NCBI GenBank assembly: GCA_964620905.1
Contig: CAZUKA010000001.1
Span: 647,646-711,645 of the forward strand
From: an uncultured Gammaproteobacteria bacterium
GTDB lineage: Bacteria > Patescibacteriota > Patescibacteriia > S139-126
Reading direction: 5' to 3'
Length of the DNA: 64,000 nt
The notes under the pieces are model-generated. The model was not told the origin of the DNA. It did not search any database and was given only the letters and a program-made list of their open reading frames with translations. Numbering within the stretch: position 1 is the stretch's first letter; every line of letters starts with the position of its first letter. The translations under genes were made by a program, and so were the position numbers. This document shows, one piece after another, positions 3,840-17,945 of the stretch.

Positions 3840-5801
3840 TTATAATAGCGGTGCAATCACGATCGCAATAATCGCCATCAATTTAATCAAAATATTAAGA
3901 CTTGGTCCGGAAGTATCTTTGAAAGGATCACCCACAGTATCACCCACTACCGCTGCTTTGTGTACAGCACTTCCTTTACCACCAAGGTTACCTGCTTCTA
4001 CATATTTTTTAGCATTATCCCAAGCGCCACCAGCGTTGGCCATAATAACTGCCAGTAAAAATCCAGTGACAGTTGAACCAACCAACATACCAGCCAACGA
4101 AGTCTTACCTAAAATCAAACCAACCAACAATGGCATAACTACTGCTAAAACCCCTGGAACAATCATATGTTTTAGAGCACTGGCAGTAGAAATAGCAACA
4201 CAGCGAGCATAATCTGGCTTAGCAGAACCATCCATAATGCCAGCGATTTCTTTAAACTGTCGCCTTACTTCGTTCACCATTTCTTGAGCAGAAGTACCTA
4301 CTGATTTCATGGTTAGAGCGGAAAATACAACTGGTAACAGTGCCCCAATAAACAGACCGATCAAAACTTTTGGATCCAAAACATCAACTACATTTAAACC
4401 AACCACATGTCCATAGGTAATCAACAACACCAAGGCAGTCAAAGCAGCACTACCAATAGCAAAACCTTTACCAATTGCTGCTGTGGTATTACCAACCGCA
4501 TCCAAATTTTCAGCACGCTCTCTGGTTTCATGACCCAACCCGGCCATTTCAGCAATACCGGCTGCATTATCAGCTACTGGTCCATAAGTGTCTGTCGCTA
4601 AAGTAATACCCAAAGTTGCCAACATGCCAACTGCGGCAATAGCTATACCGTAGATACCAGCTTGAAAATATGCTACCCAAATAGCCACACACACTGCTAA
4701 TACAGGAATAATAGTGGACATTAACCCCAAAGCAAAACCGGCAATAATATTTGTCGCTGGTCCAGTTTGAGAAGCTTCGGCAATGCCACGCGTAGGTTTG
4801 TTTTTTTCCGAAGTATAAAATTCAGTCGCCAGTCCAATAACAATTCCTGAAACCAAACCGGCAATAATTGACCAATAAACACCCACGCTGCCGACAGTAT
4901 ATTTGACCAAAAAAAATGAAAATACCGCAACTACCAAAGCTGCTGACCAGATTCCAGCATTTAAAATACCGTGTAGACTTCCAGATTTTCTCATTTTAAT
5001 CACCACGTTTCCAATCAAGGAGGCAATCACCCCTAAACCAGCAACCAATAAAGGTAAAATTGTAGCTTGATCGCCCAATAAATAAGTTGCTGCCGCCCCT
5101 AGAGCCATAGCTGCAATCAATGAATCGCTGTATGATTCAAACAAATCAGCTCCCATACCAGCCACGTCACCAACATTATCACCAACATTGTCAGCAATGG
5201 TAGCCGGATTTCTTGGATCATCTTCAGGAATACCAGCTTCAACCTTTCCGACTAAATCAGCGCCCACATCTGCCGCTTTGGTATAAATACCACCGCCCAC
5301 TCTGGCAAATAGCGCCACGGAAGAGGCACCAAAACCAAAACTATATATAACATTTGGATCTTTGATCAAAGCATATAAAATACCAATAGCCACCAATGAT
5401 AAACCTGTAACCGAAAGTCCCATAACTGACCCAGAAGAAAATGCTACTTTCAAACCAGCAAATAAACTGTGCCTGGCAGCTTCAGCGGTACGTGAATTTG
5501 CCAAAGTAGCAATGCGCATACCAATATTGCCAGCCAAAGCTGAAATAAAAGCACCCAAAACAAAGCACGCTGCTTGCACCCAACCTAGAACCGAAAAACC
5601 CATCAGTAGTGCCACCACAATTATAAAAATTAATAAAATCTTATATTCTTTTTTCAAAAAAGCCATTGCCCCCTCATGGATAAAACCGGCAATTTCTTTT
5701 ACTTTTTCATCCTCCACCTTTGTTTTTTTGATTTTGTAGGCTAGCCAACCGGCATAAACTAGACCGATTGCTCCAGCTACCACACCATACATATAATGCA
5801 T
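3840..5801 (-). CDS. hppA: Membrane-bound proton/sodium-translocating pyrophosphatase
   Basis: [22 protein letters not shown] signature, multi-TM protein, 653 aa. Confidence 0.9.
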
Positions 5802-8087: not shown

Positions 8088-8107
8088 AAGCTCTCAATTG
8101 AGAGCTT
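8088..8107. terminator. Bidirectional terminator hairpin overlapping the valS stop
   Basis: aagctctcaattgagagctt flanked by T/A-rich runs on both strands. Confidence 0.5.
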
Positions 8108-10739
8108 ATTTTAATTTGTTTAGTTTTTCTTTAGCTGCTGCTAATTTTTCTCTTTCCTTGGTGATAATCTCAAGCGGGGCTTTTTGTAGAAAATCTTTGT
8201 TAATTAATTTCTTTTCTAAAGAAACTATATATTCTTTCAACGCCTGTATTGTTTGGCTATGATCAATTTCGGTTGTTTTATTTTCCATCACCACAGTAAA
8301 CTCTGATTCTATCTGTTTATTTTTTGTCTCAAGCAAATCAGCTTTTGACCATTCAATTTTCACACGGGCTAATTTTTGAATCAGCTCTTGCTGCCCTTGA
8401 AAGAACGACAAGTATTTTTCTGAATAAATCTTAACTGGTATAAATTCAGCAACCGGCAATAGGTATTCGTTTTTTGTAGATCTTAGATTGATAATCAATT
8501 TTTGTAAAACTGTAAATAATTTTATTTCTTTAGTTGTTTCGACTTTATCTGCTGGTGGCCAAGTTTGGACCATCAGCAATAATTTATCTTGCTTTGATAG
8601 ATTATAAACCTCTGTCCAAATCGCTTCGCTGACAAAAGGTACAAAGGGGTGAATCAAAATCAAAAGCTTTTGTAAAATAAAATTCAATATTTCTGATTTA
8701 TTATTTTCAATCTTGGCAATCTCCAAATACCAGTCCGCCAATTTCCCCCAAACAAAATCATACAACAATTCTACAGCTGCAGAAAATTTATAATTATCGA
8801 GCTCAGTTGTTACTTGTTTAACCAATTGATTAAACTCAGACAAAATCCAATCATCAGCCAAAGTTTTCCCCTGCGGTCTTAGGTCGGTCAATTGTGGGTT
8901 AGGCAAATTCATCAATATAAAACGGGAGATGTTCCAAAGTTTATTGACAAAATTTCTGTACCCAGCAATTTTTTCTTCATACAAACTAAGATCATTACCA
9001 GGAGTCACACCAATTACCATAGATAGACGCAAGGCATCAGCCCCAAATTTATCAATCATAGCCAAAGGGTCTATACCATTACCTAAAGATTTACTCATTT
9101 TTTTACCATGACGGTCGCGTACCAGCCCGTGCAAATAAACTTTTTTAAAGGGAATCTCACCGGTAGCATAAGTGGTCATAATAATCATTCGAGCCACCCA
9201 GAAAAACAAAATATCATAGCCGGTTTCCAAAACTTGGGTAGGATGAAAACGTTTAAAGTCTTTGGCCTTAGGCCAACCTAAAGTCGAAAATGTCCACAAG
9301 GCAGAAGAAAACCAAGTGTCCAATGTATCTTCATCTTGTACCCAGCCCTTTCCTGTTGGCGGTTTGCTGCCAACATAAATTTCTACTTCTTCATCTGCTT
9401 GTTTCTTATTTTTTGCCTTTGACTGTTGCTGTTTATACCAAACCGGAATCCGATGTCCCCACCAGATCTGCCGGGAGATGCACCAGTCCCGCAAATTTTC
9501 CATCCAATGAAAATAAACTTTATGGAAACGTTCAGGAATAATTTCAATTTTTTTATCAACTTGTCCATCAAGTCCAGCTCGCACCGCATCTAAAGACAAT
9601 TCTTTTAAGGATTTTTTCAGTCGAGGGATTTCTTTATTAACATCAATAAACCACTGCCGAGAAGGCAAAGGTTCGATGGGTGTTTCACAACGATAACAAA
9701 CTGACAAATTGTGAACATAATCTTCGTCAATATGATCAACCAAACCTTGTGCTGCCATTTTGGCTACAATTTTTTTTCGAGCTTGATAAGCATTGCGCCC
9801 GGCAAATTCTCCCGCTTCTTCAGTCAAGTTTCCCTGTTCATCAATTATTTTTACTACTGATAAGTCATATTTTTGAGCTAGTTCAAAATCCACAAAACTA
9901 TGTGCTGGAGTGATGGTCATGGCTCCGGTACCAAGTTGGGGATCAGCAATTTCATCAGCAATAACTTGAGCCTCAATTTCTCCTTCTATCCATGGCACCA
10001 TGAATTTTTTGCCTACCAAATCTCGATAACGAACATCATCAGGGTGAACAATAATTACTTTGTCAGCAAATTTGGTTTCTGGTCTGGCAGTACCAATTAC
10101 CACTGGACCGTATTTAAAATAATAAAAAGGACTTTTTTGCTCTTTGTACTCCACTTCATCATCAGCCAAAGTGGAATGACAACGGGGACACCAATTGACA
10201 ATCCTGTTTCCCCGATAAATCAAACCGTCGTTATACATCTGTTCGAATACTTGATAAACAGTCTGAGAAATATCAGGATCCAGAGTATATTTTTCTCTCG
10301 ACCAATCAAGCGATGATCCCATTTTTCTTATCTGATTGCGAATAGTATTCTTTGATGCTGTAACATATTCTCTTACTGTTTGTAAAAATTTTTCTTGTCC
10401 TAAATCTTCTTTATTTTTTCCTTGACTGGCTAATATTTTTTCTACCTTAGTCTGGGTGGCAATAGCCGCGTGATCTGTGCCAGGCAACCATAAAGCCTGC
10501 TCACCACGCAAACGATGATAACGAATCAATAAATCCTCATAAGCCAACATGGCCGCGTGTCCCAAATGCAACTCACCAGTCACATTGGGTGGTGGTAATA
10601 CAATTGTAAAAGTAGGTGCTGTCTGGGAAGTTAGGCCACTTGCAATACAAACATCAGGGTTGAAAAATCCACTCTTTTCCCAGCGCTGATAGATTTCATC
10701 TTCATAATTTTTAGCTTCATAAGCTTTGGGTATATCCAT
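8106..10739 (-). CDS. valS: Valyl-tRNA synthetase
   Basis: HIGH-type motif PPPNVTGELHLGHA, KMSKSLGN, editing and anticodon-binding regions, C-terminal coiled coil. The track ORF extends to 10781, but MDIPKAYEAK (ATG at 10737-10739) is the conserved N-terminus. Confidence 0.9.
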   Translation of the reverse strand: MDIPKAYEAKNYEDEIYQRWEKSGFFNPDVCIASGLTSQTAPTFTIVLPPPNVTGELHLGHAAMLAYEDLLIRYHRLRGEQALWLPGTDHAAIATQTKVEKILASQGKNKEDLGQEKFLQTVREYVTASKNTIRNQIRKMGSSLDWSREKYTLDPDISQTVYQVFEQMYNDGLIYRGNRIVNWCPRCHSTLADDEVEYKEQKSPFYYFKYGPVVIGTARPETKFADKVIIVHPDDVRYRDLVGKKFMVPWIEGEIEAQVIADEIADPQLGTGAMTITPAHSFVDFELAQKYDLSVVKIIDEQGNLTEEAGEFAGRNAYQARKKIVAKMAAQGLVDHIDEDYVHNLSVCYRCETPIEPLPSRQWFIDVNKEIPRLKKSLKELSLDAVRAGLDGQVDKKIEIIPERFHKVYFHWMENLRDWCISRQIWWGHRIPVWYKQQQSKAKNKKQADEEVEIYVGSKPPTGKGWVQDEDTLDTWFSSALWTFSTLGWPKAKDFKRFHPTQVLETGYDILFFWVARMIIMTTYATGEIPFKKVYLHGLVRDRHGKKMSKSLGNGIDPLAMIDKFGADALRLSMVIGVTPGNDLSLYEEKIAGYRNFVNKLWNISRFILMNLPNPQLTDLRPQGKTLADDWILSEFNQLVKQVTTELDNYKFSAAVELLYDFVWGKLADWYLEIAKIENNKSEILNFILQKLLILIHPFVPFVSEAIWTEVYNLSKQDKLLLMVQTWPPADKVETTKEIKLFTVLQKLIINLRSTKNEYLLPVAEFIPVKIYSEKYLSFFQGQQELIQKLARVKIEWSKADLLETKNKQIESEFTVVMENKTTEIDHSQTIQALKEYIVSLEKKLINKDFLQKAPLEIITKEREKLAAAKEKLNKLK

Positions 10740-10990
10740 AATTACAGTATAAATGATTTGCAAAAATATCCAAAAAAACAAAACACCTTATTTGGTGTTT
10801 CAAGAACCCATAAAAATGGGTGGTACCATCTTGATTTCCTGAAAAATCAGGACACTTAATTTACTAGCTATCACGGGCTGATCCCGGGCAGATCTACTTA
10901 CCAAAAAGGTTTTCTGCTGCCAACTTGATTGAGTGACATTAACTCCCAATCATTGTTTTTTCTTTATCAATATTAATAAATTAATAAATA
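10740..10990 (-). promoter_or_regulatory. valS leader; candidate degenerate T-box-like attenuator
   Basis: Minus strand reads AAGA-UGGUACC-ACC...GGU-UCUU, a 7-nt UGGUACC bulge flanked by pairing arms as in a T-box antiterminator. Immediately 3' is the hairpin AACACCAAAUAAGGUGUU plus U-run. The 5' part has a hairpin GATTGGGAGT-taatgtc-ACTCAATC with GUC in the loop. Flanks deviate from the AGGGUGGNACCGCG consensus. Confidence 0.35.
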
Positions 10991-14071: not shown

Positions 14072-14101
14072 AATCCCGCCAAATTTTGGCGGGATTTTTT
14101 T
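14072..14101. terminator. Bidirectional rho-independent terminator
   Basis: aatcccgccaaaatttggcgggatt followed by tttttt; serves the convergent genes on both sides. Confidence 0.65.
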
Positions 14102-14291
14102 AACAAGCGTGAGAGTTTGTATCTCTTACTCTCTCTAAAATTTTTTCAATCGCTTCTTTATTTTTATCCACCAATGTCTGGTGGTATTTTTGAGCACTGA
14201 TTCCTTGCCTAAACTCAGGTTTGGGCAGACGGGAAATAGAAGTGATTGGTTGATCGCTTGGATTGGTTTGGGTTTTTTCTTTTTCGGGCAT
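14100..14291 (-). CDS. Small charged protein (63 aa), sole gene downstream of the T-box riboswitch
   Basis: Strong SD AAAGGAGT, 5 nt, then ATG, lying immediately after the riboswitch terminator. No recognisable family. Confidence 0.45.
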   Translation of the reverse strand: MPEKEKTQTNPSDQPITSISRLPKPEFRQGISAQKYHQTLVDKNKEAIEKILERVRDTNSHAC

Positions 14292-14305
14292 AACTTACTC
14301 CTTTG

Positions 14306-14656
14306 ATTTTTGATTGTTAAATGAACAAAATAAAAAGCGCTCTTTGTCCTCAAATTCAAGATTTGACTTAAGGACGAAGAGCGCTTTTCCAAACGCTAAC
14401 CGCGGTACCACCTTAATTTTTCTGAAAAAATTTTCAGAACGCTTTCACATACTCAAAAAGAAATATGTTAGTCCTGTGACGGGAACACCCGTGATAACCT
14501 AATAAATTTTCAGTTATCCAGCTCCAGAGGGAACTTCCCAATTGTTTTATTTCAGGCCTATTCTCAATCACGCTAGGCCCTCCCTGTGAAATAATCACAA
14601 CGGTACTTTCCTCTTTCCATGCTTTTGGCAAATTAGAATGTACTTTACTTAAATAC
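14306..14656 (-). promoter_or_regulatory. T-box riboswitch (tRNA-sensing leader)
   Basis: Minus strand carries UUAAGGUGGUACCGCGG (plus 14400-14414), an exact T-box core. The antiterminator arms UUAAGG/CCUUAA and GCGG/UCGU pair with the 5' strand of a 15-bp terminator (plus 14333-14349 paired with 14372-14388) followed by UUUUUAUUUUGUU. Upstream stem-loops include a GGCCUA...UAGGCC distal hairpin with a GAGAAUAG AG-box-like loop. Confidence 0.8.
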
Positions 14657-14685
14657 TTTATACACTGACTTTAAAAATGTGTCAA
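14657..14685 (-). promoter_or_regulatory. Sigma-70 promoter driving the T-box leader
   Basis: Minus strand: TTGACA, 17-nt spacer, TATAAA. Confidence 0.65.
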
Positions 14686-14710: not shown

Positions 14711-14756
14711 CGACCCCAAGCTAAGCTTGGGCATTGTCACGCTAAGCGTGACCCCA
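14711..14756. repeat. Paired-hairpin repeat element, copy A
   Basis: cgaccccAAGCTAAGCTTgggcattGTCACGCTAAGCGTGACccca: two palindromes with a shared TAA centre, followed by CCCCATTTTT. Confidence 0.6.
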
Positions 14757-17870: not shown

Positions 17871-17945
17871 TGGTAGCGCCACGGGGAATCGAACCCCGGT
17901 TACCAGGATGAAAACCTGGTGTCCTAACCCCTAGACGATGGCGCC
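17871..17945 (-). tRNA. tRNA-Glu (anticodon UUC), CCA encoded
   Basis: GGCGCCATCGTCTAGGGGTTAGGACACCAGGTTTTCATCCTGGTAACCGGGGTTCGATTCCCCGTGGCGCTACCA; cloverleaf with anticodon loop UUUUCAU. Confidence 0.85.

Follow-up and report, generated by a model that had tools for sequence, protein, structure and literature searches.

A transcriptional T-box leader in Patescibacteria that probably controls a single small, lineage-specific protein

What does a T-box riboswitch regulate when no synthetase, biosynthetic enzyme or transporter stands behind it? The cargo of a T-box has, almost without exception, the task of charging, making or importing the amino acid that is sensed, and T-boxes serve the prediction of gene function. 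The question arises on the minus strand of a 64,000-nt stretch of a patescibacterial contig, CAZUKA010000001.1 (hereafter the window; all coordinates refer to the whole of it), where a canonical and conserved T-box is devoted to a tiny protein of 63 aa without enzymatic or transport features. The T-box, the small open reading frame (ORF) and valS, which encodes valyl-tRNA synthetase (ValRS), all lie on this strand. An earlier note on this DNA had described the leader as a textbook T-box and had offered two explanations, a new class of tRNA-regulated small protein or a T-box orphaned after gene loss. Comparison of orthologous sequences leads us to conclude that the locus probably holds a working transcriptional T-box with one small, lineage-specific protein as the product of its sole target gene. 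As an RNA it is an unremarkable representative of a known family, met in an unusual phylum; what is unusual is the cargo.

The assignment to the T-box family came from a covariance search with Rfam model RF00230, in which the window leader aligned to the full model at 110 bits, against a gathering score of 93 bits; the orthologous leaders scored 104-126 bits wherever a locus extended far enough upstream to cover the full model. The T-box leader and the core that had been picked out by eye are thereby borne out. Every canonical domain is present, including stem I with its kink-turn (K-turn), specifier loop (AGUA/GAA S-turn) and distal platform, stem II with an S-turn, stem IIA/B, stem III and the antiterminator, and this full set is shared with the transcriptional T-boxes of Bacillota (RF00230), such as the tyrS and pheS leaders of Bacillus subtilis. 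To that extent the word textbook is apt, but three lineage-specific oddities qualify it and set the leader apart from its Bacillota counterparts: a C where a conserved purine normally follows the specifier, an additional hairpin in the linker that joins stem IIA/B to stem III, and a 19-20 nt insert, also a hairpin, in antiterminator helix A2. Host and cargo differ as well, since the leader belongs to the Patescibacteria, or Candidate Phyla Radiation (CPR), and precedes a 63-aa orphan instead of a gene for a synthetase, biosynthesis or transport. The linker hairpin amounts to an insertion of 22-28 nt relative to the Rfam model, and its pairing looks possible in the divergent L108 leader despite many substitutions there. 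Pairing in the A2 insert is retained at 99%, all changes there being one-sided, and its 3′ arm doubles as part of the 5′ arm of the terminator. A comparable lineage-specific hairpin, "stem Sa", is inserted in the antiterminator/terminator domain of the otherwise canonical staphylococcal glyS T-boxes (PMC9177973), although sequence, host and cargo differ from those described here.

The regulatory half of the leader has the expected form of a transcriptional switch. Its core (Table 1) is unchanged across the orthologues apart from one G-to-A substitution in L002, and the conserved T-box sequence with its 7-nt bulge (UGGNACC) lies between helices A1 and A2, which are 96-99% paired across nine orthologues. 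In the same nine sequences the stem of the downstream terminator is 100% paired at 17 of 17 positions. Because the 5′ arm of this terminator (14387-14361) takes in the 3′ arms of A1, of A2 and of the insert hairpin, the two predicted folds are mutually exclusive, just as had been claimed. Standard pairs fill 98.8% of the pair cells of the nine-sequence alignment in the antiterminator form and 99.4% in the terminator form, and 11 pairs, located in stem I, stem II and stem III, display two-sided (compensatory) change. None of 500 shuffles matched the observed pairing and covariation, and structures slid by 1-3 columns yielded only 0-3 two-sided pairs. Moreover, the leader folds with z = -5.1 relative to shuffled sequence, and leaders remain ~86-88% identical across lineages with synonymous sites near saturation. 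Both alternative folds are conserved and the switch, as judged from these alignments, is under selection. Transcription is predicted to start from a TTGACA-17-TATAAA promoter, correctly read before, whose hexamers do not vary in seven orthologous leaders (alignment A3) and which is followed by a leader of ~360 nt. A generic promoter scanner did not list it; that program demands a T at position 6 of the -10 box, which is an A here.

A 20-nt exact match to the T-box core was also encountered on Lactococcus cremoris plasmid pNZ4000 (L111, 2501-2520) and on 16 other Lactococcus plasmids, where it adjoins an IS982 element upstream of a helix-turn-helix regulator in an exopolysaccharide cluster. No Rfam T-box was found at this site (E ≤ 0.001), and the plasmid matches were set aside; the sequence may be a truncated T-box remnant on dairy plasmids.

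The leader is followed by a strong Shine-Dalgarno sequence and a 63-aa ORF, which we confirm as its sole downstream gene and which, on the comparative evidence, is a real gene. Two other ORFs, of 85 aa (14135-14392) and 65 aa (14434-14631), lie inside the RNA element and are regarded as spurious. Word-indexed and exhaustive profile searches recovered a family of 58-70 aa proteins (P0001-P0010 and P0012-P0015), and at least 11 further lineages carry an in-frame orthologue in this size range. Frame, start, stop and Shine-Dalgarno sequence are retained in all nine lineages compared, the AGGAG and ATG without variation among orthologues, and indels are multiples of three. The proportion of synonymous differences (pS) is 0.3-0.8, near saturation, and that of nonsynonymous differences (pN) is 0.12-0.52, with pN below pS in every pair. 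The ratio of nonsynonymous to synonymous rates (dN/dS) is 0.2-0.8 wherever computable, and values below 1 in all computable pairs indicate that the small protein is under purifying selection. The family shares a PEFRQG motif, one long helix and a C-terminal (S/C)HAC; its invariant residues are E26, Q29 (within PEFRQG), L40, I48, L52 and the terminal H61-A62-C63. Cysteines are few, one in the window protein and at most three in any family member. An AlphaFold2 model shows a disordered N-terminus of 25 residues followed by a long amphipathic helix at residues 33-60, where the predicted local distance difference test (pLDDT) is 85-95; the predicted template modeling score (pTM) of the whole is 0.40.

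Searches of Pfam, NCBIfam and PHROGs returned only insignificant matches to this protein, a profile search of PDB sequences got no further than E 0.1, tblastn found no match among plasmids and phages, and Foldseek of the AlphaFold2 model against the PDB came back empty, an outcome to be expected of a single helix. Among 1.84 billion representatives, a profile search returned only the same small family plus one repeat-rich protein of 593 aa (P0011), which gave three matches to the small-protein helix (E 3e-5; for example, GPAVKYQQTLVHKAANTLRKILQITKNT versus SAQKYHQTLVDKNKEAIEKILERVRDT). We treat this last hit as doubtful, and it may reflect either chance helix likeness or a distant relative. 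The possibility that the ORF is a remnant of ValRS was tried and rejected, as hhalign of the family profile against the window ValRS gave a probability of 0.2%.

Could the T-box nevertheless be an orphan, left behind when a synthetase or transporter was lost or displaced, with the ORF a spurious or decaying fragment? The absence of a family match would suit such a history, as would the rarity with which T-boxes control other cargo: one survey counted 17 genes without apparent link to amino-acid metabolism downstream of the 897 T-boxes that it found (PMC2494555). Yet the ORF is intact in at least 12 lineages, with Shine-Dalgarno sequence, ATG and stop retained at the synonymous divergence given above, its indels preserve the frame, its motif and HAC tail are invariant, and it bears no similarity to ValRS. 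Synteny speaks in the same direction, since no relative has a larger gene at the site; indeed, no synthetase, biosynthetic or transport gene occurs there in any orthologous locus, and a Komeilibacteria outgroup has neither the T-box nor the ORF. We consider orphaning highly improbable, and this half of the earlier note's alternative is abandoned.

The other half, a tRNA-regulated small protein, is supported by the company that the gene keeps. The same arrangement recurs at the loci designated L002/3, L004, L084, L085-89, L090/91, L092/93, L094/95, L096-98, L100, L104, L108 and L109: a variable upstream gene, the T-box, the small ORF, a hairpin and a convergent gene for a secreted protein of 504-522 aa with fn3/Pur_ac_phosph_N domains, followed, where contigs extend far enough, by tsaD-tsaE-valS-...-nusA-H+-PPase. 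Upstream DNA could be inspected in 10 of the 11 further lineages, the sequence of L091 stopping at the ORF, and the T-box is present in all 10, or 11 of 11 with the window included; for L100, L104 and L109, the last of them truncated, reading of the sequence confirmed both the core and the specifier loop. The small gene is thus linked exclusively to a T-box wherever its upstream DNA is open to inspection. With a 63-aa protein lacking a family match as sole downstream gene, the locus departs from the usual T-box regulon, which leaves its membership of the RNA family unaffected. The protein family occurs solely in a narrow patescibacterial clade close to Komeilibacteria. By ValRS, the closest named genomes are Komeilibacteria and other Patescibacteria metagenome-assembled genomes (MAGs) at no more than 58% identity, and the MAG CAZBLW01 reaches 71%. 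The remaining ValRS matches are CPR MAGs too, contigs on record for the small protein extend to 716.8 kb, and we take the host to be a CPR bacterium with a reduced genome. Across the clade itself, identity to the window is 62-70% for TsaD, 69-83% for ValRS, 86-91% for NusA and 38-76% for the small protein. In the Komeilibacteria outgroup (L005-L007) no T-box occurs within 10 kb of valS. L005 and L006 have a distant fn3-like gene upstream of tsaD, whose product is 23-26% identical to the window protein, and L006, the sole outgroup locus inspected for it, has no small ORF at that site.

The constancy of the convergent neighbour raises a further possibility, namely that the main output of the switch is RNA, with read-through transcripts running antisense into the 3′ end of the fn3-type gene to tune the secreted protein, and with the ORF secondary. 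The convergent pairing is kept in all lineages, and the hairpin shared by the two genes, which had been proposed as a bidirectional terminator, is a good intrinsic terminator on the plus strand, as claimed, but has a weak U-tract on the minus strand of the window; a terminator scanner called it on the plus strand only. In the L004 orthologue, however, the hairpin has a good U-tract on the strand of the small ORF, so that leaky termination is not a conserved trait, and the Komeilibacteria keep their distant fn3-like homologue without any T-box. The purifying selection on the small protein and the invariance of its Shine-Dalgarno sequence and ATG likewise argue for a protein product, and we judge an antisense function very unlikely. 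The 522-aa convergent protein carries its Pur_ac_phosph_N/fn3-type domains at the N-terminus, and its C-terminal part resembles three repeats of ~55 residues (LVK.P.S..VY.L...K..I.S...F..Y.F).

If a small protein is indeed the output, which tRNA is the input? The specifier codon, which the earlier note could not assign by eye, proves assignable, most likely as UUC. The loop sequence GAAGUUCC is invariant in every readable orthologue, including the divergent L108. The cmscan alignment puts UUC in model columns 91-93 and the C after it in column 94, at the highest posterior probability. As a control, a T-box upstream of ilvA on a Clostridium estertheticum plasmid (131 bits) places the expected Ile codon AUC and its following A in the same columns 91-94, directly above a 4-bp helix over the K-turn, and the register calibrated in this way points to Phe. 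The default frame of TBDB (nt 2-4 from the 3′ end of the bulge; PMC7778990) gives UUC when applied here, and among the specifiers in that database UUC accounts for 99% of those for Phe, GUU for 8% of those for Val (PMC7778990). The S-turn of stem II, which the long leader has, imposes a preference for C at the third position (PMC7583486). From these readings of the sequence, a UUC specifier recognized by tRNA-Phe(GAA) appears likely, a GUU specifier for tRNA-Val is a weaker candidate that we doubt, and other readings, for example UCC (Ser), seem very improbable. Pairing of the UGGU bulge with the ACCA 3′ end of the tRNA implies a discriminator base A73. Bacterial tRNA-Phe and tRNA-Val both carry A73, which fits either, so it is the reading frame that decides. 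A scan of metagenome contigs with an exact 19-mer for a paralogous T-box with the same loop, for example on pheS, returned nine matches, two of them T-boxes and both of these orthologues of the present locus. In 1.4 Mb of CPR valS neighbourhoods, nhmmer likewise recovered only the known loci and three short valS T-boxes, with no paralogous long T-box.

The case for valine cannot be considered apart from valS, for which we can add to the earlier account a second and atypical T-box immediately upstream of the gene (8106-10781). It was found at a relaxed threshold, below the gathering score, and has an ultrashort stem I whose terminal loop presents GUC (10937-10935) followed by A; beyond this are a stem II with S-turn, stem IIA/B, stem III, a AGAUGGUACC bulge and a hairpin with a U-run, the last of which suggests transcriptional control. 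This leader is conserved in the L002 (~4040-4260), L004 (~9760-9980), L084, L085/86 and L092/93 lineages with the loop UAAUGUC[A/G]; L094, where only 39 nt separate tsaE and valS, is without it. Since valS owns a T-box, the long T-box is not needed for it, and the different architecture of the two led us to reject the long T-box as a displaced valS leader or a recent copy of one. An ultrashort stem I is also known from actinobacterial ileS-type T-boxes (Sherwood et al. 2015, as described in PMC7583486), a likeness that concerns the valS leader and not the main finding; the valS leader is distinguished by its hairpin and U-run, suggestive of transcriptional control, by its CPR host and by its gene.

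Short T-box-like leaders with the core AAGGUGGUACCGUC were also observed in L016, a Nomurabacteria MAG (9790-9975), in L023 (1-170) and in L013 (8560-8800), directly upstream of valS in the first two and ~1.2 kb upstream in the third. The L016 hairpin loop, AUUUAAUGUCC, contains GUC. All three score below the Rfam gathering score. Short-stem valS T-boxes may therefore be widespread and under-detected in Patescibacteria, as variants that the gathering threshold misses would be overlooked by standard annotation.

How strongly, then, should a Phe-responsive switch for a small effector be preferred? Several points weigh against it. The base after the specifier is a C in either frame, and in all orthologues, instead of the purine normally conserved 3′ of the specifier (PMC2879506), so that the S-turn and a triplet in the consensus register are present but the next base may pair with the opposite G. 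A pair between G14599 and C14530 would extend the lower helix and leave GAA-GUU-C, with the spacing of tyrS and glyQS, and hence Val. Moreover, not even the most divergent member shows a change in the specifier loop, so covariation cannot decide the frame, and neither a tRNA-Phe nor a tRNA-Val gene occurs in the window or the clade loci sequences. The clade is narrow, so its conserved synteny partly reflects short divergence time. Finally, no homologue of established function was found and confidence in the structure model is only moderate (pTM 0.40), which makes any role for the modelled protein a guess.

Some of these points bear directly on the variant in which the architecture is the same and tRNA-Val is sensed through GUU, with the small protein and valS joined in a valine-limitation response. 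There GUU would directly follow the S-turn GAA, as in tyrS and glyQS; the G-C pair extending the lower helix to AGAGG/CCUCU is invariant and energetically expected, leaving the 4-nt spacing of tyrS (PMC2879506). In every lineage whose contig reaches so far, valS lies 3.6 kb from the locus, and the UGGU bulge would suit the A73 that we presume for tRNA-Val as for tRNA-Phe. Against this stand the scarcity of GUU among Val specifiers noted above, its breach of the third-position C preference despite the S-turn in stem II, and the register calibrated on the ilvA T-box, which gives UUC. In addition, the valS T-box of the same genomes reads GUC plus a purine, so that tRNA-Val would meet GUU only by G-U wobble, and the contrasting architectures show that the two T-boxes are no recent duplicates. 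Valine sensing by the long leader is on balance unlikely.

For a Phe-responsive T-box, the predicted course of events would be as follows. Transcription would start ~7 nt after TATAAA. When the cognate tRNA is charged, the ~17-bp terminator (14387-14334) would form and polymerase would stop before the ORF. When it is uncharged, its anticodon would pair with the stem I specifier, most likely UUC read by tRNA-Phe(GAA), and its free ACCA end with the UGGU bulge, and the antiterminator stabilised in this way would let RNA polymerase read through. The 63-aa protein would then be translated from its strong Shine-Dalgarno sequence, and the transcript would end at the hairpin shared with the convergent gene.

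The host phylum must import all amino acids, and in an organism so dependent the protein would report a shortage of one of them. It is too small and simple for an enzyme or a transporter, and it most likely acts by binding something; by analogy with anti-TRAP, our guess is that starvation induces it and that it has a binding or regulatory role. Were it to form oligomers, its invariant C-terminal His-x-Cys could provide a metal or thiol site. A more specific proposal, which we put forward tentatively and consider rather unlikely, is that the small helical protein with its HAC tail serves uncharged tRNA as a dedicated effector: lack of a single imported amino acid, probably Phe, would be turned directly into a regulatory protein, and growth, translation or host exploitation would change as a result. 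If so, it would constitute a minimal alternative to a stringent-type response in a genome-reduced bacterium unable to make amino acids.

It would also be a second, independent example of the anti-TRAP logic, and the existence of the first makes the claim of a new class overstated. Anti-TRAP, the product of rtpA (yczA) in Bacillus subtilis, is a 53-aa zinc-binding protein induced via a tRNA-Trp T-box (PMC10327191; PMC2494555). As here, an uncharged-tRNA T-box drives a very small non-enzymatic protein, and it is the only established precedent for this arrangement. The likeness lies in the mode of working and not in ancestry. Anti-TRAP has a cysteine-rich zinc site and is a zinc-ribbon trimer, whereas the window protein has its one Cys in the C-terminal HAC and is modelled as a single long helix, and the Pfam, NCBIfam, PDB sequence and Foldseek searches revealed no similarity of sequence or fold between the two. 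Anti-TRAP binds and inhibits TRAP. Furthermore, rtpA is presumably followed by ycbK in one operon, whereas the window gene stands alone. Should the patescibacterial protein act as an effector of starvation, it would reveal a way in which ultrasmall symbiotic bacteria tie their physiology to the supply of amino acids, and anti-TRAP would gain a functional counterpart outside Bacillus. Among the papers searched, none treats T-boxes together with Patescibacteria or CPR. The leader would offer a compact tRNA-responsive switch from the Patescibacteria themselves, a phylum for which inducible genetic tools are sought (PMC11665869).

Table 1. Features of the T-box locus and its surroundings in the window.
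Feature	Position	Strand	Details and basis
Sigma-70-type promoter	14657..14685	-	TTGACA 14685-14680, 17-nt spacer, TATAAA 14662-14657; direct reading
T-box leader, transcriptional class	14367..14628	-	Rfam RF00230, 110 bits, E 2e-23, model 1-219 (full)
Specifier loop, 3′ strand, GAA-G-UUC-C-CUCU	14526..14537	-	Likely UUC 14533-14531 (Phe); alternative GUU 14534-14532 (Val)
Extra linker hairpin (ACAUAUU/AGUAUGU), 7 bp	14447..14468	-	Between stem IIA/B and stem III; minimum-free-energy fold
T-box core AAUUAAGGUGGUACCGCG	14401..14418	-	UGGU bulge 14410-14407; direct reading and Rfam match
Insert hairpin (AGCGUUU-GGAA-AAGCGCU), 19-20 nt, 7 bp	14380..14397	-	Inside antiterminator helix A2; cmscan insertion [19]
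Intrinsic terminator	14322..14387	-	~17-bp stem 14387-14334, then U-run UUUUUAUUUUG; predicted folds
Shine-Dalgarno AAAGGAGU	14297..14304	-	6 nt ahead of ATG (14291); direct reading
63-aa gene, sole cargo of the T-box	14100..14291	-	Disordered N-terminus, PEFRQG motif, one long helix, C-terminal SHAC; ORF list, orthologues, dN/dS
Shared hairpin	14072..14096	both	Common to the small gene and the convergent fn3-type gene
Convergent secreted protein, 522 aa	12484..14052	+	Pfam: Pur_ac_phosph_N/fn3 domains, plus C-terminal repeats
Atypical valS T-box	10799..10962	-	Rfam 47.5 bits, E 3e-8, relaxed threshold, below gathering score 93

Two minor observations concern the DNA around this locus, where TsaD, TsaE and ValRS are encoded downstream on the strand of the small gene. 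Two adjacent palindromes, GTCACGCTTAGCGTGAC and CCCAAGCTTAGCTTGGG, both with a GCTTAGC centre, occupy positions 14712-14755, ~30-75 nt upstream of the T-box promoter's -35 box; both occur in the window and in the identical contig L001, and not in the L002 or L004 orthologues. Either a site for protein binding or the insertion of a small repeat could account for them. Further upstream, a tRNA-Glu(UUC) gene lies at 17871-17945 on the minus strand and recurs in several lineages, for example at 1055-1129 in L093, 2472-2546 in L094 and 4444-4518 in L004, at distances between a few hundred bases and a few kilobases upstream of the T-box locus. The genes between it and the T-box vary, among them genes for a membrane protein, a lycopene-cyclase-domain protein, a methyltransferase and a NUDIX protein, which marks the region just upstream of the T-box as a variable one.

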